Assembly: GCA_965248235.1 (NCBI GenBank)
Contig: CBDFIU010000004.1
Location: 1,175,112-1,239,111, forward strand
Direction: 5' to 3'
From: Bryobacterales bacterium
GTDB lineage: Bacteria > Acidobacteriota > Terriglobia > Bryobacterales > UBA6623
DNA: 64,000 bases
Shown: positions 1-55,494 of the stretch, piece after piece
How positions within the stretch are numbered: position 1 is the stretch's first letter
Layout: each line of letters starts with the position of its first letter
The notes under the pieces: model-generated
Seen by the model: the letters and a program-made list of their open reading frames with translations, nothing else
Databases searched by the model: none
What the model was told of the DNA's origin: nothing
Translations under genes and position numbers: made by a program

Positions 1-1944
1 GCGAACTCCGGCTGAACACAGCAGCACCACGGGCCCGCGTGGTGTTTCCACCGTTTTTTGAATGCGTTCGACGATGTCGGTAGTCGTGGCGGGCGCGAGC
101 GCGATTCGCGAAGTCACCTCGGTGTGTTCGATGGCGCTTTGTACCGACTGTTCGATGCGCGGGTCGAGATAGTAGACCGGCAGTTCTCCTTTTTCGTTGA
201 GGTAGGGTTTCACGACCGTACGGGGCAGCGCCTGACGAACGAACTCGGTGAGCAAGGTCGGGTTCTTGGTGGCCGCTCCGCCTTCCGCCAAAGCCTCGAG
301 AATCGAAACGGCGTCGCGGGTGGAGACGCGTTCGCGCAGCAAGCTCTGTAAGACGCGCTGCACGATGGAGAGACTGAGCAACTTCGGAACGAGGTCCTCG
401 ATCAGCTTGGGATGGTCCTCGCGAATGCGGTCGAGGAAGCGGTTGGTGTCTTGGCGCGTCAGCAATTCGTGAGCGTGGGCGCGAACCAACTCGGTTAGAT
501 GGGTGGCGACGACATTGGCGGGGTCGACGACGGTGGAGCCCATCACGCGCGCCTTGTCGACTTGGTCGGGTGCGATCCAGGTTGCCGGCAGCCCGAACGC
601 CGGTTCGTGAGTGGGCGTGCCGTCAAGGCGGCCTTGCGCTTCGCCGGGGTTAATCGCCAGTTCGGAATTAAGCTGTAGCTCGAAGCGGGCGATTTCGGCA
701 CCCTTCAGTTGTACGACGTACTCGCGCGCCTGTAGCGAGAGGTTGTCGGTGACGCGCACCGGAGGCAGCACGAAACCCAGTTCGGAGGCCAGCTGCTTGC
801 GCACTCCGCTGATCCGCTGCAACAACGTTCCGCCCTGCGATGCATCCACAAGCTTGACGAGACCCAGCCCGACCTCCACCGCGATCGGCTCGACGCGCAA
901 GAGACGGTTGATGTTCTCGCCTTCAGCCGGCAAGGCGGGAGTCTGAGAGCTTGGAGGCTCGGCAGGAGGCTGTTGCATCAAGTTCCAGCCGATGCCCCCG
1001 ACGCCGAGGCCGAGCAACAGGAAAGGCAGGGTCGGCAGCCCGGGAATGACAGCCATCGTCGTGAGCACGCCGGAAGCGATGAGCAGCGGCCGCGGCTGCG
1101 AAAACATTTGCTTGCCGAAGTCGGCTCCAAGCTGCGCTTCCCCGGCCGCGCGGGTCGTGATCATGGCGCCGGAAACCGAGATCAGCAGCGCCGGGACGAT
1201 CGTCACGAGTCCGTCGCCGACCGTCAAGACGGTGTAGGTTTCGAGCGCCTCTCCCAAGGCCAACCCATGCTGCAGAGCGCCCGTCAGAAAGCCCGCCATG
1301 ATGTTGACGGCGGTGATGATGATGCTCGCGATCGCGTCGCGCTGTGTGAATCGCACCGCGCCGTCCATCGCGCCGTAGAACTCGGCCTCTCGAGTTACTT
1401 CTTGACGCCGCCGCCGGGCTTCGTGCTCGTCAATCAATCCGGCGTTCAGATCCGAATCGATGCTCATTTGCTTGCCGGGCAGCGCGTCGAGCGTAAAGCG
1501 CGCGGTGACTTCGGAGATGCGAACGGCACCGTGGTTGATGACGACATATTGGATCGCCACGAGCAAAACGAAGATCACCACGCCGACGACGAAGTTTCCG
1601 CCCACGACGAAATTGCCGAATGCCTCGATCACGTCGCCGGCGGCCTGAGTTCCCTCATGACCGCCGGTCAGAATCAGCCGCGTGCTTGAGATATTCAGTG
1701 ACAAACGCAACAGAGTAAGCAGCAACAGCAAAGAGGGATAGACGCTGAACTCGACCGGCCGAGTGATATACATCGTCGCGATCAGCGTGATGACGGACAG
1801 CGTGATGTTGAGTGAAATGAGTAAATCCAGCGCGAACGGCGGGATCGGCAACACCATCATCAAGACGACCATCATGACCGCCAGAGGTAGGGCCACGTTC
1901 AGGCGTGCCGCTGTCGGCGCGGTAATGGCTTGTTCGCTCGTCAC
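1..1944 (-). CDS. flhA: Flagellar type III export gate protein FlhA (C-terminal end runs off the window start)
   Basis: Absent from the ORF track because it is open to the window edge. My minus-strand translation from GTG 1944 gives 648 codons with no stop. It includes FVVGGNFVVGVVIF and RFTLDALPGKQMSIDSDLNAG (1441-1500), hallmark FlhA motifs. It lies directly downstream of flhB. Confidence 0.9.
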   Translation of the reverse strand, partial: MTSEQAITAPTAARLNVALPLAVMMVVLMMVLPIPPFALDLLISLNITLSVITLIATMYITRPVEFSVYPSLLLLLTLLRLSLNISSTRLILTGGHEGTQAAGDVIEAFGNFVVGGNFVVGVVIFVLLVAIQYVVINHGAVRISEVTARFTLDALPGKQMSIDSDLNAGLIDEHEARRRRQEVTREAEFYGAMDGAVRFTQRDAIASIIITAVNIMAGFLTGALQHGLALGEALETYTVLTVGDGLVTIVPALLISVSGAMITTRAAGEAQLGADFGKQMFSQPRPLLIASGVLTTMAVIPGLPTLPFLLLGLGVGGIGWNLMQQPPAEPPSSQTPALPAEGENINRLLRVEPIAVEVGLGLVKLVDASQGGTLLQRISGVRKQLASELGFVLPPVRVTDNLSLQAREYVVQLKGAEIARFELQLNSELAINPGEAQGRLDGTPTHEPAFGLPATWIAPDQVDKARVMGSTVVDPANVVATHLTELVRAHAHELLTRQDTNRFLDRIREDHPKLIEDLVPKLLSLSIVQRVLQSLLRERVSTRDAVSILEALAEGGAATKNPTLLTEFVRQALPRTVVKPYLNEKGELPVYYLDPRIEQSVQSAIEHTEVTSRIALAPATTTDIVERIQKTVETPRGPVVLLCSAGVR

Positions 1945-1982: not shown

Positions 1983-3044
1983 TTAGAAGGCCTCTCGACT
2001 TAATCGGTAGATGTAAGCCAAAATTTCAGCCACCGCGCGGTAAAGATGAGGAGAGATTTCGCTTCCCACCTCGGCACTCTTATAGAGAGCCTGGGCCAGC
2101 GGCGGGTTCTCGACGATTGGGATACCGTGTTCCTCGGCCTTGTCGCGGATGCGCAAGGCCAAGTAATCGAGCCCCTTGGCCACGATGACGGGGGCCGGCA
2201 TGTCTTCGGGCAAGTACTTGAGCGCGACGGCGTAGTGCGTCGGGTTGGTGACGACGACGGTGGCTTCGGGGACCTGTGACATCATCCGTTGACGAATCAT
2301 GTCGCGCTGCAGTTTGCGCAGGCGGGCCTTGATTTGCGGATTGCCCTCGAGGTCTTTCTGCTCTTGCTTGACCTCCTGCTTGGTCATCATGAGCTTCTTG
2401 AAGGTCTTGCGGCGCTGTCGATAGAGATCAAACGTCCCGAGAAACAACAAGACGACGGCGGCCTTCATCAGCAGCTCGCCGAGTACGTCCCCGACTCTTG
2501 CCACGCCGGCGGCGAGGGGCATTTTCGGGAGTTCGAGAAGCCCGCCGAGTTCTTCGGAGAGCAGCCACCAAAAAACGATTCCGGCGACGGGAATGAGGAT
2601 GAATGCCTTGAGCGTCTGCGACAGATTGTCGCCGGGTAGTTGAGAGAGTTTCGGACGCGGGTTGAGGCGTTTGATATCCGGCTGCAAGCGTTTCGGGGAC
2701 AAGGCGAAGCCGGTTTGCGCCAACTGGGTCAGCAGACCGATTGTCAGCAACACGCCGGCGTAGATCCCCAGAAACGCCATCGGTTTGAAGGCCACCGTCA
2801 CGAACAGAACGCGAAATTCCTCTATGGTGATCGAAGGTCGAAACGCATAGGCGACCAGGCCCCGCATGGCGAGACGGAGAGATTCGAGGACATCGCCGCC
2901 ATAGATGACGACCAGCGCGACCGCCGCGGCGAACTGGAGCGCGGAGGTGAATTCACGACTGGAGGCAACTTGACCCTCTTCACGCGCCTTTTGCTTGCGT
3001 CGCGGAGTCGGTTGCTCGCTGCGTTGCGATTTGTCGGCGGGCAT
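1983..3044 (-). CDS. flhB: Flagellar export switch protein FlhB
   Basis: 353-aa ORF with a basic N-terminus (KSQRSEQPTPRRKQKAREEGQVASSRE), TM segments and the NPTH autocleavage motif (VVVTNPTHYAVAL). Confidence 0.92.
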   Translation of the reverse strand: MPADKSQRSEQPTPRRKQKAREEGQVASSREFTSALQFAAAVALVVIYGGDVLESLRLAMRGLVAYAFRPSITIEEFRVLFVTVAFKPMAFLGIYAGVLLTIGLLTQLAQTGFALSPKRLQPDIKRLNPRPKLSQLPGDNLSQTLKAFILIPVAGIVFWWLLSEELGGLLELPKMPLAAGVARVGDVLGELLMKAAVVLLFLGTFDLYRQRRKTFKKLMMTKQEVKQEQKDLEGNPQIKARLRKLQRDMIRQRMMSQVPEATVVVTNPTHYAVALKYLPEDMPAPVIVAKGLDYLALRIRDKAEEHGIPIVENPPLAQALYKSAEVGSEISPHLYRAVAEILAYIYRLSREAF

Positions 3045-3105: not shown

Positions 3106-3839
3106 CTACGGTTGGACAAGCGCCTCGATCACAGCCCGAGTTCGTTCGGCCAAGCTGTAAAAGAGCCGCGGCGCAAGCAGCGTCACGGGATAGAGGATGG
3201 CGACAGCGCCGACGATCTTCGCGGGAAACGCCAGGGTCAGTAGTTGAAGGCGGCTGTTCACCTGGTTGAGCAGCCCCAGAGTGAGATCGATGAGCAACAG
3301 CACCGCCATCACGGGCAAGGCAGAGCGGACGGCGGTCTCAAAGACCGAGCCTCCGAGGCGCACCATCATCAAGGCGTCCGCCGGCCGGGTTTGGAAATGG
3401 CCCAGCGGCCACGATTCCAAGCTTGCGGCGAATGCCCGAACCAAGTAGAGGTGCAGGTCGAAGGAGAAGAACAGCAAGCTGCCCAGCAGGGCGAACAAGA
3501 CGTTGAGAATCGAGGCGTCAACCTGTGTCGTCGGGTCGACCATATTGACATAGGAATAGCCGGCTTGGAATCCGAGAATCTGTGCCGCCAAGCCGAAGAC
3601 CTCCAGGAGTAACGCCACCGCGACGCCAACCGCGAGTCCGAAGATGGCTTCGGAAAGGATCAGGCCGGTCAACGTAAGCAGAGCCGCAGGAGCAAGACAG
3701 CCAGCGTCAACGCCAAGACCGCCTTGGGGAGGGCCGGGAACTGACGGCTCCCGGGCAGGGGCACAAAAGTCACGAGACCGGCCGTACGCGCAAGCAGGAG
3801 AACAGCGTTGATGACCCAGGGGAGAGGGATGTCGATCAT
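3106..3839 (-). pseudogene. fliR: Flagellar export protein FliR, split by an apparent 1-nt indel
   Basis: ATG 3839 opens 56 codons (MIDIPLPWVINAVLLLARTAGLVTFVPLPGSRQFPALPKAVLALTLAV...) that end at TGA 3671-3669. The remaining 188 codons (LTGLILSEAIFGLAVG...GFQAGYSYVNMVDPTTQ...) are in the -1 frame from 3672. Both parts look like FliR, and the shift maps to about 3685-3700. Confidence 0.75.
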
Positions 3840-3840
3840 T

Positions 3841-4010
3841 TTGCGTGTCGCCGGGGTACGTGTCGTCGGGGTACGTTTCCGCGAATCAGCCCGCGCCCAA
3901 TCAGGTTGTGCCGAGGTATGGCTACGCCGAGAAGTTCGCTACCCGTCGCCCATCGCGTGCCCTGTAGCCGGCAGTCCGTACCTTGGCGACACGTGATTCG
4001 GCGACACGGA
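3841..4010. repeat. Family-1 short dispersed repeats (CGGCGACACG core) filling the fliQ-fliR spacer
   Basis: A tandem cgtgtcgccggggtacg / cgtgtcgtcggggtacg sits at 3845-3877. ggcgacacgtgattcggcgacacgga sits at 3985-4010. The same strings recur at 5447-5483 and, inverted, at 14285-14303. Confidence 0.7.
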
Positions 4011-4013
4011 CCC

Positions 4014-4283
4014 CTACCGCGCAAATTTCTCCAGACCGCCTAGTAGCTCTGTTGTGTATCCGATCAATCTGTCCGCCATCCACGGTCCCAACAGCATGGC
4101 GGCGACCAGGAAAACGACGAGTCTCGGCACGGTGGTGAAGGCGGGGTCCTGCATCGACGTGAGGATTTGCACGACGCTGACGAGAATCCCGGCGAAAAAT
4201 CCGGCCAACAATAGCGGACCGCCGACGACCAGGGTGATCCAAAACGCGCCTCGGATGACTTCAACAGCGGTATCGGGGGTCAT
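4014..4283 (-). CDS. fliQ: Flagellar export protein FliQ
   Basis: 89-aa two-TM ORF (MTPDTAVEVIRGAFWITLVVGGPLLLAGFFAGILVSVVQILTSMQDPAF...) of typical FliQ size and sequence, in flagellar context. Confidence 0.9.
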   Translation of the reverse strand: MTPDTAVEVIRGAFWITLVVGGPLLLAGFFAGILVSVVQILTSMQDPAFTTVPRLVVFLVAAMLLGPWMADRLIGYTTELLGGLEKFAR

Positions 4284-4354
4284 ATTTCGTGTCGCCGATC
4301 CACGTAACGCCGGATTACGTTAACGGCCATGTTCTCCGTCGTATTTCCCGCGTT

Positions 4355-5390
4355 GATGGGTATTTACTTGACTCAGGTGACCACAAGATGTAGGATCGGG
4401 GAAATGGAAGATTATCCTCGGAATCTGGCCGAGTTCGAGGCGCGTTTCGCCACCGAGCAGGCCTGTCGAGAGTATCTGTGTCAACTCCGCTGGCCGGAGG
4501 GTTTTCGTTGTCCGCGATGCGGGCACGACAAAGCGTGGGCGGTGCGGACAGCGCTGCTGGAGTGCGCCGGCTGCGGGCATCAAGCTTCTCCAACGGCGGG
4601 CACAATATTTCAAGACACCCGCCAACCCCTCCAGAGTTGGTTTCGAGCCATGTGGTGGCTCACGAGCCAGAAGAACGGGGCGAGCGCGCTGGGCTTGCAG
4701 CGGGTGTTGGGCCTGGGCAGCTACAAAACGGCCTGGACTTGGTTGCATAAGCTCCGGCGCGCCATGGTGCGGCCCGGACGCGATCGGCTCAGCGGGCGCG
4801 TGGAGGTTGACGAGACTTACTTAGGAGGCTTGGAGGAGGGCGTGCGCGGTCGCCAAACCGACGCTAAGGCGCTGATTGTAGTAGCGGCCGAGGAAGATGG
4901 TGCCGGCATCGGGCGGGTTCGGATACGCACCATTCCCAACGCCTCCGGGGACAGCTTGATGGCCTTCGTCGGCGAGTCGATCGAACCCGGCAGCGTGGTC
5001 CATACCGACGGTTGGCTGGGATACGAACCGCTCGAAGGCGACGGCTATCGCCACGAGGTGAGCTACCTGGAGGGGCAACCGGCGCGCGCCTCGAAACTGC
5101 TCCCCCGGGTGCACCGCGTGGTGTCGTTAGTGAAGCGCTGGATACTGGGCACGCATCAAGGAGCGGTCAGTCACGAGCATCTCGACTCCTACCTCGACGA
5201 ATTCGCCTTCCGCTTCAACCGCCGCAAGTCCAGAAGTCGAGGCAAGCTCTTTTACCGCCTGGTTCAACAGGCCGTCGCCGTGCCACCGGCACCCTACAAA
5301 TCGCTGGTCGGAGGCACCGCGACACGCGCTACGGACGACCACAACATGTAGGGGCTATTTCCCAATACCTGAGTCAAGTAAATACCCATC
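4355..5390 (+). mobile_element. IS1595-family insertion sequence, copy 1 (1036 bp), in the fliP-fliQ spacer
   Basis: Perfect 24-bp terminal inverted repeats (GATGGGTATTTACTTGACTCAGGT). Perfect 8-bp direct repeat cccgcgtt at 4347-4354 and 5391-5398. It carries one transposase ORF. Confidence 0.92.
4404..5351 (+). CDS. IS1595/ISXO2-like DDE transposase with N-terminal zinc ribbon
   Basis: MEDYPRNLAEFEARFATEQACREYLCQLRWPEGFRCPRCGH...CAGCGH, then a DDE-type core (VEVDETY...VHTDGW...SYLDEFAFRFNRR). The start is chosen at ATG 4404 inside the longer track ORF. Confidence 0.88.
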   Translation: MEDYPRNLAEFEARFATEQACREYLCQLRWPEGFRCPRCGHDKAWAVRTALLECAGCGHQASPTAGTIFQDTRQPLQSWFRAMWWLTSQKNGASALGLQRVLGLGSYKTAWTWLHKLRRAMVRPGRDRLSGRVEVDETYLGGLEEGVRGRQTDAKALIVVAAEEDGAGIGRVRIRTIPNASGDSLMAFVGESIEPGSVVHTDGWLGYEPLEGDGYRHEVSYLEGQPARASKLLPRVHRVVSLVKRWILGTHQGAVSHEHLDSYLDEFAFRFNRRKSRSRGKLFYRLVQQAVAVPPAPYKSLVGGTATRATDDHNM

Positions 5391-5446
5391 CCCGCGTTAT
5401 ACTTCAACGCTCCCGAGAGCAACATCGACGGAGGTGCTTTCGTGGG

Positions 5447-5483
5447 CGCGTACCCCGGCGACACGTGAATCGGCGACACGGAA
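5447..5483. repeat. Family-1 short repeat copy
   Basis: cgtaccccggcgacacgtgaatcggcgacacgga. It matches 3985-4010 (25 of 26 nt) and the reverse complement of 3845-3860 (17 of 17 nt). Confidence 0.7.
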
Positions 5484-5484
5484 T

Positions 5485-6327
5485 TCAGAACCCTCTTACC
5501 AGCGATCCCACGACTAGATTCCAGCCGTCCACCAGGACGAACAGGAGTAGTTTGAACGGTGCGGAAATCATGATCGGCGGGAGTTGGATCATGCCGAGCG
5601 ACAAGGTTACCGAGGCGACTAACAGATCGATGACCAAGAACGGCAAGAACAACACCGCCCCGATCTGAAAGGCGGTCTTCAGTTCCGAAAGCACATACGC
5701 GGGCATCAAAACCGTCAGCTCGATATCGTCCAAGTTCTTTGGTCGAGGCTTGTCGGTGATATCAAGAAACAGCGCCACATCCTTGTCGCGCACGTATTTC
5801 GCCAAGAACTTCTTCAACGGACGTCCGGCACGCTCCAGCGCCTCGATGTGTCCGATTTCCTGCTTCTGTAAAGGCACGATCGCCTCGACATGGATTTGAT
5901 CGGCAACCGGGCGCATCAACACCACGGTCAGAAACAACGTCAGGCCGATCAAGTTCTGGTTGCTCGGCGCGGTTTGCGTGCCGACCGCTTGACGCAAGAA
6001 ATGCAAGACGATGAGAATCCGCAAGAACGGCGTCAACGACGCGATGGCGGCGGGCAACAGCGTCAGCAGCGTCAGCAAGAGCAGAATCTGTAACGTGGTT
6101 CCCAATTGATCGGGGTTGTCGCCGAACGAAATGCCGAGTTGCGGGGCTGTGGGCGGCGCGGGCGGTGTCGGGTTCTGCGCCGGCGCAACGCTCGCGCTGA
6201 TCAGAAAGAGCGTGATAAAGCATAGGACGGCTGGAAGATGGAGAGTTCGTCGCCGAGCGTTTGATTGATCGAGGCCAACCTGGAGCGACGAAAGCTCGGC
6301 TCGTCCCGCGTACGCCCGAAGCGTCAC
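5485..6327 (-). CDS. fliP: Flagellar export protein FliP
   Basis: The conserved FliP core is present (LTPFLRILIVLHFLRQAVGTQTAPSNQNLIGLTLFLT...MPAYVLSELKTAFQIGAVLFLPFLVIDLLVASVTLSLGMIQLPP). I propose a start at GTG 6327, overlapping the fliO stop as GTGA. The track ORF extends further upstream. Confidence 0.88.
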   Translation of the reverse strand: MTLRAYAGRAELSSLQVGLDQSNARRRTLHLPAVLCFITLFLISASVAPAQNPTPPAPPTAPQLGISFGDNPDQLGTTLQILLLLTLLTLLPAAIASLTPFLRILIVLHFLRQAVGTQTAPSNQNLIGLTLFLTVVLMRPVADQIHVEAIVPLQKQEIGHIEALERAGRPLKKFLAKYVRDKDVALFLDITDKPRPKNLDDIELTVLMPAYVLSELKTAFQIGAVLFLPFLVIDLLVASVTLSLGMIQLPPIMISAPFKLLLFVLVDGWNLVVGSLVRGF

Positions 6328-6659
6328 GAAGGCTCCGATATCCCTTCGGATGGTCGCCGCAAACGATTCGACAACAGCCCCGACAGCAGAGAAGCTTTGG
6401 TTTCCGGCGCCGGGCAATCCGCCAACTCGTCAGGGTTTAGCTCGCTGACCAGCGACACGCGCTCATTCGTCGCCGCGAGCAAGAATAAGCGCGGCCCGAC
6501 ACGCACGAGCGAAAGCGTCTTATTCGGCCCGATGGCGAGGGTTTCGACCACCGCGAGGTTGCCTCCGCCTGCTTGCTTCGAACCCCATTGCCTCAGCAGC
6601 CACAAGCACCCGGCCAGCAGCGCGAAGACGAACAAAAGGGCCAGTACGGAGTCGAGCAT
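6324..6659 (-). CDS. fliO: Flagellar biosynthesis protein FliO
   Basis: 111 aa with a single N-terminal TM (MLDSVLALLFVFALLAGCLWLL), then VVETLAIGPNKTLSLVRVGPRLFLLAATNERVSLVSEL. Position is immediately upstream of fliP. Confidence 0.65.
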   Translation of the reverse strand: MLDSVLALLFVFALLAGCLWLLRQWGSKQAGGGNLAVVETLAIGPNKTLSLVRVGPRLFLLAATNERVSLVSELNPDELADCPAPETKASLLSGLLSNRLRRPSEGISEPS

Positions 6660-6706
6660 CTTGAGTTGAAGGTCGATTTCGCGAATGGGTTGGCGAGGGA
6701 TGTTTG

Positions 6707-7078
6707 TTAATCGTCGCCCCTGTCGTCGGGAATCCGCAGATCGGTGATACGAAGGCCCATGGTGTCTTCTATGACGACGATTTCTCCGTTGCCTACCGTC
6801 ATCCCTTCCATCAATAGATCCACGTTCTCTCCCGCTGATCTCGACAACTCGATAACGGAACCGACTCTAAAATCCAACACGTTGGCGACCCTGACTCTTT
6901 TGCGGTCCAGTTGGACGGAGATCTTGACGGGTATCTCGCGAAACGAGTCGATCGCATCGGGAGGAGCGCCGAGGGCCGCCAGCTCCGGGTTGGGAGCGGC
7001 AACCGGAGTTGGAACCCTGCCATATTGCCACCCTCCGTGTCCGGTCTGCTGATTGGCGACTCGCCGAACGGCTCTCAA
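6707..7078 (-). CDS. fliN: Flagellar motor switch protein FliN
   Basis: The C-terminal SpoA/FliN domain is present (IPVKISVQLDRKRVRVANVLDFRVGSVIELSRSAGENVDLLMEGMTVGNGEIVVIEDTMGLRITDL). The exact start is uncertain. Confidence 0.85.
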   Translation of the reverse strand: MRAVRRVANQQTGHGGWQYGRVPTPVAAPNPELAALGAPPDAIDSFREIPVKISVQLDRKRVRVANVLDFRVGSVIELSRSAGENVDLLMEGMTVGNGEIVVIEDTMGLRITDLRIPDDRGDD

Positions 7079-7106
7079 TCAACGCTCGGGAACCGCCTGT
7101 TGCCGT

Positions 7107-8424
7107 CTATCGCTTCAAGTTCAGCGCCTCTTGGTTCAACTCGTCGGCCGTGGTAATCACCCGCGAGTTGGCCTGGAAGCCTCGCTGAAACGTCAACAAA
7201 TTCGTGAACTCTTGGGCAATATCGACATTCGAGAACTCAAGCGATAGTCCGAGCACCGACCCGAGTCCTCCCGTGTTCGCCGGCCCGGTTACCGGGAGCC
7301 CTGAAGCCGAGGTCGGGACGTAGTTGTTGTTGCCGACCGAGAGAAGCGTCTGCGGGTTTGTAAAGCGCGCCAGTGAGAGCTGTGCCAAGGTCAAGGTTCT
7401 GCCGTCGCTGTCGAGGCCGTTGATTTTGCCGCCGTCGGCGATCGAAATCGAGGTCAACTGCGCGGGTGGCGAGCCGTCTTGCGCCAGGTCGGAGACCGAC
7501 GAATCGGTCGCGAAGTTCGTCAGTGTCGGTTGCAGCAACGAATCGAGCAGGCTCCAATCAATCTGCAAAGGGTCGGCGCCGTTGGCGAACGTGTAGCCGG
7601 CGGTCGTGGTATTGATGTCTTAATTGATAGGGATTCCCCGCACCATTGGGGTTGATGAGGATTCCCTTGCCATCGAACTCCATCGAAACAGCCGCGGGTA
7701 CGCCGCCGTCGATCAGAATGTTCGGATCGGTCGCGGGCGTGGCGTTCGATCCGTCGAGAACGTCATCCGCGGGGATCGTCACGGTTACGCTGAATTCCCC
7801 GGCGGCGCTAGTGGGCGGAATAACGGGAGTAAAGGTCAGCGTTAGAATGTGCGACTCGCCGAGCGAATCGAACACCTGCAGCGGCACGGTGAAGTCTGTC
7901 GTAAGGTTTTTCGACAGGTTCGCGGTGATACTGATTTCGGATGTAGTGTCCGGCTCGAGCGTGTCGTTGCCGGCCAAGCTGATGTCCGCAATGGGTAGGT
8001 TGGTGTTGACGACCTCGGTTGTTGGATTGCGGTTCCAGCCCTGCACGACTTCGCCGTTAATGGTGACCAACACACGTTCGGTGTTGAGTTGGAAGTTGCC
8101 GGCGCGGCTGTATTGGGTTAGATCGTTGTCCTTGACGATAAAGAAGCCCTCGCCTTGGATCGCGGCGTCGAGAAGGCCGCCGGTGTTTTGGACGGTACCT
8201 TGTTCGAAACGACGAGAGACGGTGATCGGCGCGACCCCGAGGCCCGCCTGCGAGGCAACGCCGGACCGACTCAAGCCGATTGTTTGATAAAAAAGGTCGC
8301 GAAACTCAGCTCGGCTTCCCTTGAAAGCGAATGTGTTGAGGTTGGCGAGGTTATTCGCGATCACCTCCACGGCTCGGGCATGAGAGCGAAGACCGGATAG
8401 AGCGGTTAGAAATGCACTGGGCAT
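7107..8424 (-). pseudogene. flgE: Flagellar hook protein FlgE, split by an apparent +1 frameshift
   Basis: ATG 8424 has AAGGAG 7 nt upstream and opens MPSAFLTALSGLRSHARAVEVIANNLANLNTFAFKG. This frame degenerates after ...NPNGAGNPYQL and stops at 7558. The hook C-terminus (DINTTTAGYTFANGADPLQIDW...FTNLLTFQRGFQANSRVITTADELNQEALNLKR) continues in the +1 frame from 7619. A TAA at 7622-7620 in that frame pins the shift to 7620-7623. Confidence 0.8.
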
Positions 8425-8533
8425 GGGAAGAAATCTCCTTACTTCAAATCTTCGGTTTGGTCTGTGTCTTATTGTTTGGATCGTTGCTATGTCAGCTGAA
8501 AGGAGGCGGCCCGCGATGACTTGCTCATTGGTT

Positions 8534-8836
8534 TCAGGCTTCGCTGTCAAGCGGAGCGGCCCGCGCTTCAGCCAAGGCGGCTTCGGCTTGGAGCAGGCCG
8601 TGAATGCCTTCCAGCGTCTTGCGCATCGCCAGCGTCTGCTCCATCTCGGAAAACTGGGCGAGCTGGGAGACGAACTGGGTTGGATCCATCGGGCTGAGCG
8701 GGTCCTGGTTTTGGATCTGCGCGATGAGCAGTTGCAAGAACATGTCGCGAGTAGTGTCGTTCGATGCGAGCGGGCGTCGAATCTGTTCCGTGTCGACGCT
8801 CGCCGCGGCGGTGGTGTCGGTTACCGAGCCTGTCAT
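8534..8836 (-). CDS. flgD: Hook capping/assembly protein FlgD (short form, N-terminal domain only)
   Basis: 100 aa carrying the FlgD N-domain motif (DMFLQLLIAQIQNQDPLSPMDPTQFVSQLAQFSEMEQ). AGGAGG lies upstream. It sits between fliK and flgE. Confidence 0.8.
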   Translation of the reverse strand: MTGSVTDTTAAASVDTEQIRRPLASNDTTRDMFLQLLIAQIQNQDPLSPMDPTQFVSQLAQFSEMEQTLAMRKTLEGIHGLLQAEAALAEARAAPLDSEA

Positions 8837-9150
8837 TAGTCAATCCTCCTGTTGGAATCTTTCACGGACGAGCGGCGGTCGAGCGGGCGGCGTTGCCGAA
8901 AATGTTTGTCGGCAACCCCCTCTTCCGTCCGAACGGGTTGTTGGGGTTCGAAGTGTTCCCCCGCGGCCGCGGCCGCTACAGCGGGGGATTGCCGCCGCGG
9001 GCTCGCTTCGGGCGCCGATGTGGACGCATCCGCCGCAGCGCCGGCTGAGAGAGGGGCTTGCGGCCCGGAAGGGGAAGCTGTGCGGTCGAGAATCTTCAAC
9101 CAGACCGAGCTGGGAGTTCCTTGGTCGGTGCGAGACGTTGTTTTCGGCAT
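8836..9150 (-). CDS. Hypothetical low-complexity protein between fliK and flgD
   Basis: ATG 9150 is preceded by AGGAGAAGGAAA. The stop TAA overlaps the flgD ATG (TAATG at 8834-8838). The sequence is Ala/Pro/Ser-rich with no recognisable domain. Confidence 0.3.
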   Translation of the reverse strand: MPKTTSRTDQGTPSSVWLKILDRTASPSGPQAPLSAGAAADASTSAPEASPRRQSPAVAAAAAGEHFEPQQPVRTEEGVADKHFRQRRPLDRRSSVKDSNRRID

Positions 9151-9182
9151 AGGTTTCCTTCTCCTAGGAGGCCGGCGCGTCA

Positions 9183-10813
9183 TCAGACGGAGCGCTCGAC
9201 CTCCAATTGAAACGACCGGGCTTGGCGACCGGTCGGTTGCCTAGACCGGAAAGATCGCTGTTGGCGGCGTCCGCCTTGCTGCTGATGGTGCGTATCTCCA
9301 TACCCGGCCGACCCATTGGAGGGGGCCGCCTGGGCCTGCAGCCCCCGGTCGGCGAGCGATTCGAAGAGCCGCGGCAATGTGTCGTTGATCAGGTTTCCCG
9401 TGCGCCCCCTGTCTGTGCGCACGATGGTGTCGATGAACCCGGCTCGTTCGACCAAACGTAGAGAGAGTCGCCCGAGACGGCTGTCACGCAAGAGGATATT
9501 CATTTGCGTGGATGAGGATTGGCGCTGAAGAGCCGCCATTTCGACGAACCGCTCAACAGCCTCGGCCCCTTCGTTGGCGGACGGAGGAGCCGTAGCGGCG
9601 CGCGACATTGGCAGAGGGTCTTGGCCGGGCTTTGGCGCGGGTTGCGAAAGCACGGCCTCTCCGCCGGCGGGCCGTGATTCCAAGTAATTCGTGGGAGAAC
9701 CGGAGTTGTGCCCTGGGAGCACGGTTGCGGGCGATCGATCGGGCCGAGGCGATTGGGGGCGCTGGCGAGGCTGCCCGCATCTTCGGCTCGACCGGCGGAA
9801 AGATCGTCGGACTCTCCAGGAGTGAGGCGGTGACTGGTACTGAGTTTTCCACAAGAAGCGATCCCGGCCTTTGATGGGTGATCGAGTCTGGAGGAAGAGA
9901 TCCGCGGGAGCCGGAGACCGCCTCTTCAATCTGCTCGAAACGGGTCGGCACGGAAGACGCCGTAGCGGACGAGACCGGGGCGGACGGGGCCGGCGCGGAC
10001 GCGGCCGGGGCCGGGGCGGATGGGGCCGGGGCCGGCGCGGATGGGGCCGCGGCCCGGGGCGGATGGGGCCGCGGCGGACGGGGCCGGCGCGGACCGAATC
10101 ACCGGGGGGGGCAGGCGCCCCTTTCGGTCCGATCGAGTTTTGGTCCCGTCTCCAACCATCTGAAAGCTCGAATCGACGCGGTTGGGGAGAGGAACATCCC
10201 CCTTCCCGGACCACAACCCGGCCGGAATAGCGGTTTCGTCGAAGCGTAGTCGCGGAAGCGCAACAGCGCCCCGCCCCGGCGGGGTTTCACTCGTTTCGGC
10301 GGCGCCGTCCTCCCCGAGGCTGGGGACGGCCACGGGGTCTAATGCAGGTTGCCGGTTGATCGAATTCGCGCTTCGCGTCCTCGGCGTTGGGCGCTCGGCT
10401 TCTTCGATGAGCTTCCTGGCTGTTTCGACAGCATTATGAAATGCGGAGTTGGATTCAGGTTCGGTTTCCGTCTCACGCGGCGCTTCGTCGCCGACGGCTT
10501 GAGCGCTAGCCGGTTGCTCGACTGCCCGACGATCCGTTGACCGGCCACGCGTGGGGGTACGGGTAGCCGCGTCGCTCTTATCCGCGTGTCGGTCCGGGAC
10601 CCGCTGTTTCGATGCCGTTGCCGAACCGCCGCGCTCCGGATCGGAGGCCGACGCTCCGCCGAATGACAGCGCATCTCGCGAAGTCGAGCGTCGAGCCGAG
10701 GCGGGCGAGGAGGCGTTCCCCGGCGGACGGCTTGGCGGAGGCGCCGCGGAAGCAGGGACGCCGACTGGGAGGGATAGCGGCAACGCCGCGAGATTGGGCA
10801 CGCCAACGGCCAA
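9183..10813 (-). pseudogene. fliK: Hook-length control protein FliK, readable only across three frames
   Basis: The C-terminal Flg_hook-type domain is clear (AVERFVEMAALQRQSSSTQMNILLRDSRLGRLSLRLVERAGFIDTIVRTD). The protein-like sequence runs in frame X from 10813 to about 10055. It continues in frame Y to about 9745 (AAAPSAPAPAPSAPAPAASAPAPSAPVSSATASSVPTRFEQIEEAV) and in frame Z to 9183. Low complexity limits certainty. Confidence 0.6.
9971..10095. repeat. Degenerate coding tandem repeat inside fliK (units of 15, 15, 21, 21, 22, 15, 15 nt)
   Basis: Units end in gcgga(c/t), e.g. ggggccggcgcggac and ggggccggggccggcgcggat. They encode (S/A)APAP-type repeats on the minus strand. One unit (10043-10064) is 22 nt. 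Confidence 0.8.
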
Positions 10814-10947: not shown

Positions 10948-11712
10948 ATGGCGATTGCATTCGTCGCTGCAATGGATCAAGCACTATTGACGGTTGCGGC
11001 CGGAATGAAGGCGCGTCTCGAGACGCTCGACGTTCTGGGTAACAACATTGCCAATGCCTCGACGAATGCGTTCAAGGCCGATCGAGAGTTCTATCGTCTG
11101 TTCACGACCGAGCGGACCCGCTTTGGAGGCGAAGACGACCTATTAAGTCTCATGCCGGTGGTCGAGGCGTCTATCGTCGATTTTTCGCAGGGGCCGCTGA
11201 TGGCGACGGAATCTCCGCTTGACGTCGCTTTGTCGGGTCCGGGTTTCCTGGCGGTTCGTTCACCTGGGGGGACTCTCTACACGCGCAATGGAAGTCTGCG
11301 GCGATTAGTGAGTGGCCAACTGGCGACGGTTGATGGTTATGCGGTATTGGGAACCGACCAAAAAGGGATCGTGCTGCCGGAAAACGGCGAGGTACGGATC
11401 GAGCCCGACGGGCGGGTGCTTGTGGACGGGCTGGAAGCCGGCCAACTACGAGTAGTCGAATTCGAGGCGCCGAGGGCGCTTTCGAAGTCAGGGAATAACT
11501 ATTTCACCGCGGGCGAAGCCGCGGCGCCAAAACTGGCCGAGAGCACGGGCGTTCTGCAAGGGAGGCTTGAGGCCTCGAACATCAACGCCTCGGAAGAAGC
11601 GATCAACTTGATTACCGCCGGCCGTCACTTCGAGATGATGCGGCACATCGCGTCGCTGATCGGAGAGCAGATGAACGGTCGAGCGGTCGATGAATTGGGC
11701 CGAACGTCGTAG
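10948..11712 (+). CDS. flgF: Flagellar proximal rod protein FlgF
   Basis: The N-terminal rod motif (LETLDVLGNNIANASTNAFKADRE) and C-terminal motif (LQGRLEASNINASEEAINLITAGRHFEMM) are present. It lies immediately upstream of flgG. An alternative start is ATG 10972. Confidence 0.85.
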   Translation: MAIAFVAAMDQALLTVAAGMKARLETLDVLGNNIANASTNAFKADREFYRLFTTERTRFGGEDDLLSLMPVVEASIVDFSQGPLMATESPLDVALSGPGFLAVRSPGGTLYTRNGSLRRLVSGQLATVDGYAVLGTDQKGIVLPENGEVRIEPDGRVLVDGLEAGQLRVVEFEAPRALSKSGNNYFTAGEAAAPKLAESTGVLQGRLEASNINASEEAINLITAGRHFEMMRHIASLIGEQMNGRAVDELGRTS

Positions 11713-11774
11713 CGGAAACCGACGCGACAACTTGCGATTATCGACTCGCGGCCCATCGCAACAAAGGAGTTTTC

Positions 11775-12566
11775 ATGATTCGAGCACTTTTCAGCGCCGC
11801 CAGCGGCATGATCGCTCAGCAGATGAGCATTGACAATATCGCGAATAATCTCGCGAACGCCAACACCACTGGTTTCAAGCAGCGGCGCGTGCAGTTTCAA
11901 GATTTGCTTTATCAGAATTTGGTGGCGCCGGGTACGCAAGCCGGTCAACAGACGGTAGTGCCGTCGGGATTGCAGCTCGGTTTGGGGACACGCGTGGTTT
12001 CGAACGAAGTCATCTTCAAGCAGGGTGATTTCGTATCGACCACCAACCCGCTCGATGTCGTCATTCAGGGCAAGGGATTCTTTCAAGTAAGGCTGCCGAG
12101 TGGTGAATTGGCCTATACGCGGGCGGGGGCATTTCATGTCGACCGCGATGGGAACTTCGTGACTCCGAACGGCGACCCCCTCGAGCCGAACATCACGATT
12201 CCTCGAGAGGCTCTTGACATAATGATCGCCTCCGACGGCACCGTTAGCTATACGCAAGTCGGGCAGATCGAAGCGCAGCAGGGCGGCATCATTCAGCTAG
12301 CCGGTTTCCAAAACCCGGCCGGGCTGCTGGCGTTGGGAAAGAATCTGTTTCAGCCGACGCAGGCATTGGGCGATCCGGCGGTCGGATTGCCCGGCGGACA
12401 GGACGGACTGGGCAGTTTGCAGCAGGGGTTTCTTGAGAATTCCAACGTCAGCGTGGTCGAGGAATTCATCGCCATGATCATGAGCCAGCGCGCTTATGAA
12501 GCCAATGCCCGTGTTGTTCGTACGGCGGATGAGATGTACCAGGAAGCCAATTCGTTGAGCCGCTAG
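11775..12566 (+). CDS. flgG: Flagellar distal rod protein FlgG
   Basis: 263 aa: MIRALFSAASGMIAQQMSIDNIANNLANANTTGFKQRR...GFLENSNVSVVEEFIAMIMSQRAYEANARVVRTADEMYQEANSL. Confidence 0.93.
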   Translation: MIRALFSAASGMIAQQMSIDNIANNLANANTTGFKQRRVQFQDLLYQNLVAPGTQAGQQTVVPSGLQLGLGTRVVSNEVIFKQGDFVSTTNPLDVVIQGKGFFQVRLPSGELAYTRAGAFHVDRDGNFVTPNGDPLEPNITIPREALDIMIASDGTVSYTQVGQIEAQQGGIIQLAGFQNPAGLLALGKNLFQPTQALGDPAVGLPGGQDGLGSLQQGFLENSNVSVVEEFIAMIMSQRAYEANARVVRTADEMYQEANSLSR

Positions 12567-12580
12567 CTCAAGGAGGGGTC

Positions 12581-13570
12581 GTGAGTAAATTGATTTCCTT
12601 GACGAAAGCATCGGTGAGGTTTTTTGGCCGGCAGCGAAAATGGATTCGCCCCACGAGGGCGGTGTTTCTTGCCTTATTGACGTGCGGCGTCGTGTCGGCG
12701 TCGGAAACGGTTCGTCTGGCTCTTGACCACGACCGTGTAACGGCGGGCGACCTGGCTTCGGTTCTGCCGGGTTGGGGTGAGGTCGAACCCGCCCAGATGA
12801 TCGCCTATGCTCCGCTGCCCGGCATCGAACGGCGAGTGGGCGCAAGCCGCCTGATGGGCTGGGGGCGTCGCTTCGGCGTTGATCTGACCAGGGATGAAAT
12901 GCCCGAGGTGCTTTTGATCTCCCGTCACATGAGGACACTCGGACCGGCCGAGGCGGAGGAGCGGCTGCGTGAAGCCGTGGCCTCTTACTATCGCATCGAG
13001 CCGGGGACTGTCGAAGTAGTGCTCGTGGGATTCGAGGAGCTTCGCGTGCCTTCCGGTGATCTGAGCTTCGAAGCCGCCGGTTCATTCCAACGGTTGAATC
13101 GGCCCTCGTCGGTGGCGCTGCGATGGCGCGAGGAAGGTGGTCGCGGGGGAACACTCTGGCTACACGCGACGATTTCGATTGTCGGGCGATATGCCATAGC
13201 CCGGGAGAAGCTTCACGCCAAGGTCCCGCTGCGCTCCGAGGACTTCGAGTTTCGCGAAGGCCCCTTGCCGGGTAATCCTGAGAAATTTCTCATTTCACAT
13301 GAAGCAGTTGACGGAATGTCCTTGAAGTATTCATTGAATCGCGGAGACGCCTTAAGGACCGATCTATTGGTCAAGAATCGGGCGGTTCGCCGCGGGGATT
13401 TAATCGAGCTCCAGCTACGCTCGGGCCTGATTATGCTGCGGGTGCCGGGGCGCGCCGAGGAGGCCGCCGCCGTGGGTGACGTCATCGCGTGCCGCAACCT
13501 GGAGTCGGGTAGCCGGGTGTCGGCGCGTGTGTTGGATTCCAATCACGCCGAAGTGGAGTGGGCCCGATGA
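12581..13570 (+). CDS. flgA: P-ring assembly chaperone FlgA
   Basis: Signal/TM N-terminus plus a C-terminal FlgA-type beta domain (RGDLIELQLRSGLIMLRVPGRAEEAAAVGDVIACRNLESGSRVSARV). Position is between flgG and flgH. Confidence 0.78.
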   Translation: MSKLISLTKASVRFFGRQRKWIRPTRAVFLALLTCGVVSASETVRLALDHDRVTAGDLASVLPGWGEVEPAQMIAYAPLPGIERRVGASRLMGWGRRFGVDLTRDEMPEVLLISRHMRTLGPAEAEERLREAVASYYRIEPGTVEVVLVGFEELRVPSGDLSFEAAGSFQRLNRPSSVALRWREEGGRGGTLWLHATISIVGRYAIAREKLHAKVPLRSEDFEFREGPLPGNPEKFLISHEAVDGMSLKYSLNRGDALRTDLLVKNRAVRRGDLIELQLRSGLIMLRVPGRAEEAAAVGDVIACRNLESGSRVSARVLDSNHAEVEWAR

Positions 13571-14283
13571 GGGAGAGAAGTCGGGGGGCTAACTCGCGGA
13601 TCCGTGGGCGGTCGGCGGCTTGGATCGTGGTTTTGTGCGGAGTCGCGGCCGGCGTTTGCGCTGGGCAGTCGAGCGAGCAGACCCTGGAGCGGCACATTCA
13701 AGAATCGTTGAACTCGTCGGGCGGCGGGCGCTCTTCGAAAGGGTCGCTCTTCAACAGCCGGTCTTATCTGGCCGAATTGGGAAGGGACCCCAAAGCGGCG
13801 GTCGCTGGAGACTTGATCACGATTCGCGTCATCGAGCAAGCCAGCGCGTTGAGCAGCGGGTCGACATCATCTTCGCGGACGTCGGATGCGTCGAGTAGCG
13901 TTTCATCGTTGTTTGGGGTGCTGAATCCGGCGGGGGCGTTGGCGAATCTGGCACAGCACTCCGGGGAATCGACCCTTGACGGACGGGGAAGCACGACCCG
14001 GCAAACCAGCGTGACGGCGACGATCACAGCCCACGTTACGCATGTCATGCCCAGCGGAAACTTGGTGATTGAAGGCATTAAGGAAGTGATCGTAAATTCT
14101 GAAAAACAAACTGTTTGGATGAGAGGAATAGTCCGTCCCACCGATCTGGCCGCCGACAACAGCGTGCGGTCGGACCGAGTAGCGATGATGGAACTCCGCA
14201 TCAACGGCAAGGGTATTGTGAACGACGCTATACGCCGGCCGAACATATTGATGCGCGTCCTGAAAAAGATATTGCCGTTTTAG
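13558..14283 (+). CDS. flgH: Flagellar L-ring protein FlgH
   Basis: DLITIRVIEQASALSSG...ITAHVTHVMPSGNLVIEGIKEVIVNSEKQTVWMRGIVRPTDLAADNSV. An N-terminal signal with Cys is present. The start is uncertain (overlaps the flgA end). Confidence 0.87.
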   Translation: MGPMRERSRGANSRIRGRSAAWIVVLCGVAAGVCAGQSSEQTLERHIQESLNSSGGGRSSKGSLFNSRSYLAELGRDPKAAVAGDLITIRVIEQASALSSGSTSSSRTSDASSSVSSLFGVLNPAGALANLAQHSGESTLDGRGSTTRQTSVTATITAHVTHVMPSGNLVIEGIKEVIVNSEKQTVWMRGIVRPTDLAADNSVRSDRVAMMELRINGKGIVNDAIRRPNILMRVLKKILPF

Positions 14284-14284
14284 C

Positions 14285-14395
14285 TCCGTGTCGCCGAATC
14301 ACGTTTTGGCCGGGCTGAGCCGTGATTCGGAGCAACGTAATTCGGCGGCACGGCGACACGTAATTCGGCGAAACGTACCCAGTCGACACGAAAAA
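14285..14395. repeat. Family-1 short repeats plus hairpin in the flgH-flgI spacer
   Basis: 14285-14303 is the exact reverse complement of cgtgattcggcgacacgga at 3992-4010. A perfect 10-bp inverted repeat (ccgaatcacg 14294-14303 / cgtgattcgg 14321-14330) has a 17-nt loop. Degenerate ~15-nt units follow (attcggcggcacgg, cgacacgtaattcggcgaaacgtaccc). Confidence 0.7.
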
Positions 14396-14397
14396 CC

Positions 14398-15495
14398 ATG
14401 ACTTTGCTCAAACCGATGATTCCACTGCTTCTGCTGGCGACGCTTGCGCTGCCGGCTCCGGCCGCTCGCCTCAAGGATCTGGTATCCATTGAGGGTGTGC
14501 GTGACAACATGTTGATTGGATACGGGTTGGTCGTTGGACTCAATGGGACGGGTGACCGCCAGCAGACCGTTTTTTCAGCACAGAATTTGTCCAACCTATT
14601 ACAGAAAATGGGCGTCAACGTCGCACCTACCGCCCTGCGGGTCAACAACGTGGCCGCGGTGATGGTGACGGCCAACCTGCCGCCGTTTGCCACGCCGGGA
14701 ACGAAGATCGACTTGACCGTTTCCTCGATCGGCGACGCCGCGACATTGCAGGGCGGCACGCTGTTGCTGACTTCGATGAAGGCCGCGAATGGCGAAGTCT
14801 ACGCCGTCGGTCAGGGACCAGTGTCGATCGGAGGTTTCAGCGCGGGAACCGGCGGAACCGGAGTGCAGGTCAATCATCCGACCGTAGGACGCGTTCCCAT
14901 GGGTGCGACGGTCGAGAGGCCCGCCCCAACGGTTGAGCCGAATCCCGCCGGTTTCCGTTTGCAATTGCGGCGGCCTGATTTCGTGACAGCTTCGCGGTTG
15001 ACCGAAGTGTTGAACGGAAAGTTCGCCGGCACGGTGGCGAAGGCCGAAAACTCCGCCACGGTGTTGGTGACGATGCCCCAGGACTTCCGCGCTTACCCGG
15101 TCGAATTCATCGCGGCCATCGACGGCCTCGACGTGCCGACCGACAGGACGGCCGCGGTTGTGCTCAACGAGCGGACCGGAACGGTCGTCATCGGCAGCGA
15201 CGTGAGGGTCGCGCCCGTGGCGGTATTGCACGGGAATCTCACCGTCCAAGTCGTAACCGACTACGCCGTGTCGCAACCGGGACCGCTGTCGGGCGGACAA
15301 ACCGCGATCACACCGCAAGTCGGCGTGGAGGTGACCGAGGAGCAGGCGAGGCAAGTTTCGTTAAGAGAAGGAGCGAACGTCGAAGAGCTCGTCAAAGCCT
15401 TGATGTCGATCGGCTCGACGCCGCGCGACATCATCGCCATCATGCAGAGCATCGCCGCCGCAGGGGCGCTTGATGCCCGGCTGGAGGTGATCTGA
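14398..15495 (+). CDS. flgI: Flagellar P-ring protein FlgI
   Basis: 365 aa with a signal peptide, then RLKDLVSIEGVRDNMLIGYGLVVGLNGTGD...ANVEELVKALMSIGSTPRDIIAIMQSIAAAGALDARLEVI. Confidence 0.93.
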   Translation: MTLLKPMIPLLLLATLALPAPAARLKDLVSIEGVRDNMLIGYGLVVGLNGTGDRQQTVFSAQNLSNLLQKMGVNVAPTALRVNNVAAVMVTANLPPFATPGTKIDLTVSSIGDAATLQGGTLLLTSMKAANGEVYAVGQGPVSIGGFSAGTGGTGVQVNHPTVGRVPMGATVERPAPTVEPNPAGFRLQLRRPDFVTASRLTEVLNGKFAGTVAKAENSATVLVTMPQDFRAYPVEFIAAIDGLDVPTDRTAAVVLNERTGTVVIGSDVRVAPVAVLHGNLTVQVVTDYAVSQPGPLSGGQTAITPQVGVEVTEEQARQVSLREGANVEELVKALMSIGSTPRDIIAIMQSIAAAGALDARLEVI

Positions 15496-52171: not shown

Positions 52172-52182
52172 GGTTCTTCCCC

Positions 52183-54054: not shown

Positions 54055-55494
54055 GGTGAATCCTCAGTGTAGCCGTAAGCCCGGTACGCCTTAAGGGCCT
54101 TCCGCCCCGCGCCCGCGGAATTCCTCCGCCCAGTTCTCAACCACACGGATGGTCGGCTTGGGGACCTCGCCCGTCTCGGTGAGCGGCTCGACGAGGATGA
54201 ACCGCTTGCCGTCAGCCGAGACGTCGTATGGTGCGTAATTGAAACCCGGGCGCAGGCCGGGGTGATCAAACAAGCGTGTCGTCTTCCCAATCGAAAATTC
54301 CCCCTCGGTCGAAACCTCGACCGCGATCAAGGTTTCTCCCTCGACGTAGAAAAGCTCCTTGCCGTCGCGACTCCAGCGCATTCTGGTCCCGCCGTTCGTC
54401 GAGACCGTCACCCGTCCGTCGCCTTCGGGAAACGGGCGTACGTATAGCTCAATGCGGCCCGACTCAGTCGAGGTGTAGGCAACGAAGCGGCCGTTTGGGG
54501 AAAGTTTCGGCACGGATTCGGCGGCCTGACTTTTGATGGTCCGATGGGGTTGCCGGCTGCTCCCTTCTTCTTCGAGCTCAACCCATCCGATGTCGTACAC
54601 CCCATCAACGTGAAAAAGCAAATACCTCCCGTCCCTCGACCAGTCCGACAGAATGTCGAAATCGGGCGTCGCCAACAGCGGCGTCGCCTCACCGGCGCCG
54701 TCGGATCGACGAAGATAAATGTCCCCACTGCCCGACCGGAACGTGAGGAAGGCGATTTGTTCCCCGTTGGGCGACCACACCGGTCGCCACTCGGCCGATG
54801 CCGCGTTCGTCAAGCGCGTCTTGACGCCGCGGACCATGTCAAAGACCCAAATATCCTGGTTCCCTCCCTCGGTCAGCGACAGGGCGACGCGACGGCCGTC
54901 CGGGGAAAGCGCAGGGGAGGCAAGCTGCCCCGCGAGGTCTACTTCTCGCAACTTGCGACCGCTTCGATCAACCCATACCAATCGTCCTCTGTCCGTTGGG
55001 GGAGTGTCGAGGTAGACCAGGGTCTCATCGTCGGCTACCGTTGCTTGGAAGGCGTCCTCGGCAATCGGAAACGCCTCACCCTCGGCGCGCTGTGTATCGA
55101 GGGAAAAAGGCATTGCCCAGAGGTCATATTCGGTCAACAGGGAAGCCTGATAAACGAGGTGACCGCTGGCCGAATAGGAGGGGTTCGTGCCCTTGCCGAG
55201 AATTTCTCGACGCCCGGTTTCCAGATCCTGCACGACTAAGGAATGCACGCTCAGGGGACCGGCCGCGAAGACCACGATTCGGCGCCCTGCCGGCGCGGGC
55301 AGGAAATGTGGGCGGCTAAGACTAACCCCTTTGCCCAGCTCATCCTCGAAACCTTCCGGCCGTAGCAACAGCTTAGGGACCCCACCCTGAGCGGGAACCT
55401 CATAAAGGCCAAACACTCCCCCGCCTACATGTGCACTGAAGACAATCGCTTCCCCGTCGGGGCTCCACGCGGAGCCTGCGTTAGTTCCGTCCTT

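Follow-up and report, generated by a model that had tools for sequence, protein, structure and literature searches.

The flagellar export/hook operon on the minus strand of a 64-kb stretch of DNA from an uncultured member of the Acidobacteriota (Bryobacterales; contig CBDFIU010000004.1, positions 1,175,112 to 1,239,111; the whole stretch is called the window here) is probably undergoing real and recent pseudogenisation. Compared with intact orthologs, the operon has six independent lesions, namely a 46-bp deletion in fliR, a 10-bp deletion in fliN, a +1 frame change in flgE, another in fliK, a second break in fliK at a deletion junction, and an insertion sequence (IS) between fliP and fliQ. 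An earlier note on this DNA had proposed pseudogenisation of flagellar genes during an IS expansion. The pseudogenisation is borne out by the fliR and fliN deletions, the expansion by four identical copies of the element, and the recency by these copies together with low ratios of nonsynonymous to synonymous change (dN/dS); decay is not restricted to flagellar genes.

Genes were identified by matches to Pfam profiles, and frame changes were located by tblastn and blastn against relatives. The Pfam matches in the region were FlhB, FliR (in two pieces), FliQ, an IS1595-type transposase, FliP, FlgE (in two pieces), FlgD and the C-terminus of FliK, and the order on the minus strand is flhA-flhB-fliR-fliQ-[IS]-fliP-fliO-fliN-flgE-flgD-fliK. 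The genes of this operon, the first IS copy and the divergent operon next to them are as follows (ORF, open reading frame; aa, amino acids).

1..1944, minus strand: flhA, intact; the first ~648 of 683 codons, the remainder lying past the window edge
1983..3044, minus strand: flhB, 353 aa, intact; ortholog of equal length, gap-free
3106..3839, minus strand: fliR, predicted pseudogene; Pfam Bac_export_1 split over two ORFs
4014..4283, minus strand: fliQ, 89 aa, intact ORF; Pfam Bac_export_3; 89 aa in all relatives
4347..5398, plus strand: IS copy 1 including its duplications; IS proper at 4355-5390, 1036 bp; transposase ORF at 4356-5351
5485..6417, minus strand: fliP, intact, longest ORF; FliP domain at residues 114-306, Pfam FliP 1-191 of 191
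6324..6659, minus strand: fliO, 111 aa, intact; 111 aa in relatives
6707..7078, minus strand: fliN with a deletion, from the alignment to L081, L082 and L084
7107..8424, minus strand: flgE, predicted pseudogene; Pfam domains split over two ORFs, frame change in tblastn
8534..8836, minus strand: flgD, 100 aa, intact; 100 aa in L081-L084, 98 aa in L001
9183..10813, minus strand: fliK, predicted pseudogene; three frames, Flg_hook domain in the last frame
10948..15495, plus strand: flgF-flgG-flgA-flgH-flgI, divergent operon, all intact

When a repaired FlgE was used as a protein query, intact 438-aa orthologs with 98% and 95% identity were obtained from close relatives; a scan of the GTDB representative genomes with FliP gave no match above 60% identity. 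The FlgE query also recovered the N-terminal fragment of the window's own FlgE (P0044). Among hits with a name, the best were metagenome-assembled genomes of Terriglobia and Bryobacterales, which places the organism in the Acidobacteriota. The lesions were mapped by nucleotide alignment to the syntenic loci of the relatives (L081, L082 and L084; for flgE, also L083). The window is 85-90% identical to L081 and L082 at the nucleotide level, and in both of these loci each operon gene is one ORF and the gene order is that of the window without the IS. The lengths of their proteins (L081/L082 where they differ) are 772/694 aa for FliK, 100 for FlgD, 438 for FlgE, 110 for FliN, 111 for FliO, 89 for FliQ, 259 for FliR, 353 for FlhB and 683 for FlhA. 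This comparison with orthologous loci, which the earlier note had put forward as a check, confirmed the flagellar lesions against the intact loci of the relatives.

The two largest changes in coding sequence are in fliR and fliN. The fliR deletion, relative to L081 and L082, has its junction at 3687/3686 and removes about 15 codons, with a net effect of -1 on the reading frame; FliR of L084 likewise has 259 aa, as in L081 and L082. The placement of the deletion is ambiguous over 5 nt, within 3681-3687, and an imperfect CCGCTC/CGGCTC repeat flanks it, which together form a signature of microhomology or slippage. The fliN deletion is located at 7019/7018, just 3' of the native ATG (7023-7021), where the relatives (L081, L082 and L084) have ATGGCATTGCCTCGTAGGGTTCC and the window has ATGGC----------AGGGTTCC. 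The native and conserved GGAGG-ATG start now reads a 70-codon out-of-frame ORF, and the body of FliN (6707-7039) is in frame solely with a TTG at 7078, whose Shine-Dalgarno sequence is weak. These deletions are not of the type that long-read consensus errors give, and both genes are intact in every relative examined. In the lesion list of the earlier note, the lesions were found at the coordinates given, but the fliN deletion had been overlooked and some lesions had been assigned to the wrong type: the supposed -1-type shift in fliR at 3685-3700 was right in its place and in its net frame effect, and is a 46-bp deletion rather than a 1-nt shift.

The reading frame of flgE changes after codon 268 of 438 owing to one extra A at 7620-7621; the four relatives (L081-L084) have TTAGAC (or TTGAAC) where the window has TTAAGAC, so that the +1-type shift proposed at 7620-7623 was confirmed by the alignment. 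Removal of one A yields a 438-aa protein, which is exactly the ortholog length and 98% identical to P0001. Two +1-type shifts had been proposed for fliK. The first, at about 10053, is an extra G at 10053-10055 in a repeat coding for PAPSAP, where the window reads CCCCGGGCC and the other repeat units read CCCCGGCC. The second break also exists, although at 9754-9755 and thus about 10 nt from the proposed ~9745, and it coincides with the junction of a deletion of ~822 nt relative to L081 (~1530 -> ~2347), the window reading CCCCCAATCGCC and L081 reading CCCCC-ATCGC. From these sequences, the change would be either an in-frame deletion of 822 nt plus one extra A or a deletion that is itself out of frame. 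A distinct in-frame deletion occurs in the same central region of fliK in L082, indicating natural length variation in this part of FliK. The lengths seen are 772 aa (L081), 694 aa (L082) and ~541 aa, and the highly variable central region (window 9740-10110; L081 606-2924; L082 7155-9239) contains a GC-rich repeat with a 15-nt period coding for PAPSAP, with duplicated blocks in L081. Such variation in FliK, the hook-length ruler, could change the length of the hook.

The IS in the fliP-fliQ spacer was described in the earlier note as 1036 bp long, antisense to the operon, upstream of fliQ and flanked by a perfect 8-bp target-site duplication, and its ends, duplication and strand were all verified. 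It has perfect 24-bp terminal inverted repeats (GATGGGTATTTACTTGACTCAGGT) and perfect 8-bp duplications (CCCGCGTT at 4347-4354 and 5391-5398), and 71 nt separate it from the fliQ ATG downstream; in the relatives (L081 and L082) the spacer is 210-224 nt long and has no IS. The transposase matches Pfam DDE_Tnp_IS1595 over the complete profile (1-153 of 153, E = 2.2e-31) and, at its N-terminus, Zn_ribbon_IS1595 (E = 7e-14). The element possesses all of the defining IS1595-family features that were tested. Three further copies were found in the window.

45430..46465, plus strand: IS copy 2, 100% identical to copy 1; perfect 8-bp target duplication TGGGTTTG
55495..56530, plus strand: IS copy 3, 100% identical; inside the kinase/PD40 gene; target duplication CCGTCCTT
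61322..62357, minus strand: IS copy 4, 100% identical; without a target-site duplication; adjoins a reverse-transcriptase remnant

All four copies have the perfect 24-bp inverted repeats and are identical over 1036 bp, and three of the four have duplications, the right-hand one of copy 3 having one extra C at 56538. The IS load is about one copy per 16 kb of the window. The IS end sequence was absent from all 87 loci that were fetched, and no IS was present at the orthologous sites of the relatives. An intact IS4-like transposase gene (DUF4372 and DDE_Tnp_1; 46548-47717) directly adjoins copy 2. Copy 4 and the reverse-transcriptase remnant (62548-63041; a weak RVT_1 match in two frames) fill the OMP-TPR intergenic region (61322-63243), which is only 121 nt long in L085; this arrangement, with the duplication of copy 4 missing, points to an older retroelement in which the IS has mediated an adjacent deletion.

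The timing of the decay was examined through substitution patterns. For flgE, fliP, fliR, flhB and flhA, dN/dS on the window lineage was 0.06-0.15 in pairwise and lineage-polarised counts (0.06-0.07 for flhA), at dS values of 0.14-0.4 to the relatives. These low values indicate that the flagellar genes were under purifying selection for nearly the whole of the divergence. Relaxed selection on the window lineage, in the form of a raised dN/dS, was not detected, the values being no higher than in the relatives. The low dN/dS fits a very recent inactivation and gives no positive support for decay; it bounds the age of the lesions and does not bear on whether they are lesions or artefacts. Together with the identity of the IS copies, it indicates that the decay is recent. 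Relatedness changes from gene to gene within 5485-8424 (flgE, dS 0.14 to L081 and 0.40 to L082; fliO, dS 0.02 to L082 and 0.28 to L081), and this mosaic points to recent recombination among populations.

Not all of the flagellar genes are affected. The flhA region is aligned without gaps to L081 and L082 over 1960 nt at 90% identity, the alignment of fliP to these two loci is also gap-free, and the ORF lengths in the flgFGAHI operon match those of L082 and L083 (263, 329-334, 238 and 365 aa), the gaps being multiples of 3 or compensated. The earlier view that flhA, flhB and flgFGAHI are intact is therefore upheld, since their lengths equal those of the orthologs and gaps occur only as multiples of 3 or as compensated pairs. 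The short FlgD of 100 aa is the normal form for the lineage.

At least one non-flagellar gene, compared together with its surroundings to L085-L087, is also broken.

54091..58000, minus strand: Ser/Thr kinase with PD40 beta-propeller, predicted pseudogene; Pfam Pkinase split by an in-frame stop

Its lesions are a change of CAA to TAA at 57641-57643, IS copy 3 and the 1-nt insertion (C) at 56538. The nonsense codon is CAA in three relatives (L085-L087, by nucleotide alignment), each of which has one 947-aa ORF, and the ortholog P0123 is intact, with 947 aa and 93% identity. A further frameshift in this gene at ~56545-56560 was ruled out, as the alignment to the ortholog showed solely the extra C at 56538. 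The long non-flagellar ORFs listed in the earlier note are indeed uninterrupted, and the lesions are clustered as it had stated; its contrast between flagellar and non-flagellar genes is nevertheless incomplete on account of the kinase (54091-58000) and of the reverse-transcriptase remnant, split over two frames, beside IS copy 4, and the better contrast is that between genes already dead and genes still needed.

Whether the small insertions are mutations or errors of the consensus was assessed by their distribution. The rate of 1-nt insertions in the broken genes is 0.34 per kb. Were it the same elsewhere, the other 41 kb of coding sequence should contain ~14 frameshifts; none was seen (P ~7e-7), and the clustering far exceeds chance. 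The indels are thus not spread as random consensus errors would be, in agreement with the earlier note. All four single-base insertions are located in genes or an operon already killed by a large lesion, which make up 22% of the coding sequence (chance 0.002). Only gaps that are multiples of 3 or compensated were found relative to the relatives in flhA, flhB, fliQ, fliP, fliO, flgD, flgFGAHI, part of the topoisomerase-RecQ gene and the OMP, isochorismatase, NUDIX, Fer2, MoCoBD, FAD and CoxG genes, and the other genes of the window have full-length Pfam matches. The 2.8-kb OMP gene, which lies between the dead kinase gene and IS copy 4, shows no gap relative to L085 over 2529 nt, making a local low-coverage artefact beside the kinase unlikely. 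The four IS copies (4.1 kb) served as a further gauge of error and showed no discrepancy, with weak power (P(0 errors) = 0.24). Ordinary errors of a long-read consensus cannot account for the deletions of 46 and 10 bp, for the nonsense codon or for the IS.

Several points weigh against real decay of the operon. The four single-base insertions (7620, 9754, 10053 and 56538) would be indistinguishable from consensus errors without reads. The loci of the low-coverage relatives L083, L084 and L086 (contig names labelled 2x-5x, L083 and L084 being labelled 5x and 2x, respectively; long-read metagenome assemblies) are fragmented, with FlgE in two to three pieces, FliP in two, FlhB in two, FliK in three and OMP in two, which looks like consensus error and means that this type of data is able to yield such breaks. 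The window lineage has no nonsynonymous excess, so that indels among the decay events seem numerous, relative to substitutions, for neutral decay. Translation of fliN might persist from the TTG at 7078. A simple scan for terminator-like sites on the operon strand inside IS copy 1 found none, so the IS may not be polar. A second flagellar gene set may exist elsewhere in the genome, of which 64 kb is covered here. The fragmented genes of the three low-coverage relatives (L083 and L084 over their whole loci, L086 at 4996-7810) are themselves broken at positions other than those of the window, probably by consensus errors, and call for caution when pseudogenes are inferred from low-coverage long-read contigs.

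On these grounds it is possible, though not probable, that the large lesions are real and the operon is dead, and that the four single-base insertions (one in flgE, two in fliK and one in the duplication within the kinase gene) are residual consensus errors. Errors left in long-read assemblies are typically single-base indels, breaks of this kind are present in L083, L084 and L086, two of the four sites are in a G/C-rich repeat or a short run (CCCCGGGCC at 10053 and CCCCCAA at 9754), and the window lineage has no nonsynonymous excess. However, errors would also have struck the 41 kb of intact coding sequence and would not be expected to fall in dead genes only, neither the flgE site (A to AA) nor the duplication site in the kinase gene (C between two Ts) is a homopolymer context, the OMP gene beside the dead kinase is free of gaps, and the IS copies, for what that gauge is worth, are free of discrepancies. 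We therefore consider it rather probable that the single-base insertions are real as well, and, when both of these explanations are taken together, the operon is very likely dead.

A more radical explanation, in which only the IS insertion is real, all else being an artefact of assembly, and the flagellar operon is intact, functional and possibly transcribed through the IS, could draw on the low dN/dS of the window lineage, on the lack of a terminator-like site on the operon strand inside the IS and on the error-like fragmentation in the low-coverage relatives. It is highly improbable, because consensus errors do not typically take the form of 46-bp or 10-bp deletions or of a C-to-T nonsense substitution, and because the clustering of the lesions in two loci is extreme. 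It is also quite unlikely that the consensus is a chimera of co-existing strains, each with one loss-of-function allele, so that no cell would have all six lesions. The source, a contig of 1.9 Mb, does appear to be of the long-read metagenome type, the closest sequences all being ENA metagenome contigs, and the mosaic similarity described above (flgE to L081, fliO to L082) implies that populations recombine or co-occur; yet the lesions are 0.6-3 kb apart, a distance over which a single long read normally gives the phase, the separate assembly of four identical IS copies implies reads that span them, and the sequence gives no direct sign of heterogeneity. Programmed ribosomal frameshifting or phase variation, by which the frame breaks would be functional, was rejected and is almost certainly not the explanation: apart from the fact that some breaks involve a single base and one lies in a repeat, nothing speaks for it, whereas the same proteins are encoded in a single uninterrupted frame in all relatives, the runs measure only 2-3 nt, which is not enough for a slippage switch, no known slippery motif is present at the flgE site, and read-through is impossible at the deletions of 46 and 10 bp.

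Under real and recent pseudogenisation, the preferred explanation, an early hit would have made the flagellum useless. FliR belongs to the core of the FliPQR export gate in the flagellar type III apparatus, and the fliR deletion is for this reason the best candidate for that hit. Loss of FliR, or of the translation of FliN, would abolish export, and FlgE, the hook protein, and FliK, the hook-length ruler, would then have no function, so that selection on the pathway would be relaxed. Slippage-type deletions, single-base insertions and transpositions of an active IS would pile up neutrally in the dead genes, and the neighbouring genes still needed would stay clean. The position of IS copy 1, 71 nt upstream of fliQ, may in addition have a polar effect on fliQ-fliR-flhB-flhA. 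As predicted from these sequences, the cell is probably non-flagellated and non-motile.

Other parts of the window gave the following observations. A 1406-aa ORF (16143-20363, plus strand) encodes a type IA topoisomerase (Toprim, Topoisom_bac) fused to a RecQ helicase (DEAD, Helicase_C, RecQ_Zn_bind and HRDC), an unusual natural fusion that is conserved in L082 (1434 aa). It is followed by a ~1-kb gap of low coding density, occupied (20420-21222) by a HicA-toxin-like ORF (20420-20635) and, on the opposite strand, an ORF of 169 aa that has CxxC pairs and matches no Pfam profile. The ORFs at 43012-44640 and 44466-45209 were considered as one frameshifted gene and are two genes, each with its own signal or transmembrane N-terminus; likewise, the candidates for broken genes at 23914-24585/24216-25199, 48526-52213 and 52823-54063 proved to be ordinary adjacent genes with full-length Pfam domains. 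A 94-aa ORF with only an ANTAR domain (47943-48227) looks 5'-truncated. The synteny with L085 ends after coxG, next to which the relatives carry an acyl-CoA dehydrogenase gene. Between the kinase and isochorismatase genes, L085-L087 have a block of ~3 kb (L085 13207-16000) with PQQ dehydrogenase, cytochrome c and HicB-like genes, and the window has just 36 nt (54055-54090) at this place, which reflects either a loss here or a gain in the relatives.

Provided that the lesions are real, flagella have only just ceased to be made in this lineage while an IS is actively spreading, and the window offers a natural snapshot of how gene decay begins in a phylum whose known genomes are mostly large and come from free-living soil bacteria. 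Automatic annotation of this metagenome-assembled genome (MAG) would list a near-complete flagellar set and wrongly predict motility. The main value of the case is a correct prediction of phenotype for the MAG, with a possible hint of early genome degradation in the phylum. It also offers a worked route for telling decay from consensus error without reads, by asking whether orthologs are intact, whether there are lesions too large for errors, and whether small indels are confined to dead genes. The bloom of one IS, the multiple hits in motility and signalling genes and a loss of the 3-kb PQQ-dehydrogenase/cytochrome block would fit the very first stage of genome degradation in an Acidobacteriota lineage, of the sort seen in bacteria that have recently become host-restricted or passed through a bottleneck; we consider this unlikely.

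In comparison with known systems, the operon consists of the same protein families as the flagellar type III export and hook module of Salmonella and E. coli (FlhA, FlhB, FliPQR, FliO, FliN, FlgD, FlgE and FliK), and its gene order is conserved among close relatives; it differs from that module in that fliR, fliN, flgE and fliK are disrupted, FlgD is the short 100-aa form and the centre of FliK is variable. The element resembles the IS1595 family (ISXO2-like DDE transposase with an N-terminal zinc ribbon) in having both domains at full length, a single transposase ORF, a length of ~1 kb, terminal inverted repeats and an 8-bp target duplication, the placement being made at family level from these features, and it departs from the family in the lack of a duplication at copy 4 and in the extra base in one duplication of copy 3. 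IS expansion accompanied by genome degradation and loss of flagellar or motility genes is known from Shigella, Yersinia pestis, Bordetella pertussis, Burkholderia mallei and Sodalis-type symbionts. In Symbiopectobacterium purcellii MEX, IS proliferation is found together with 2,723 pseudogenes, and motility and flagellar genes are missing (PMC12813293). A narrow full-text search of the literature gave no case in Acidobacteriota of an IS with flagellar pseudogenes. The window shares with these examples of degradation many identical copies of one IS, multiple hits per pathway, flagellar casualties, signs of recency and intact housekeeping neighbours, and is unlike them in coming from an uncultured member of the Acidobacteriota without a known host association and in being a sample of only 64 kb. 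The event is thus of a known kind, and the instance, in an uncultured lineage of the Acidobacteriota, is new.

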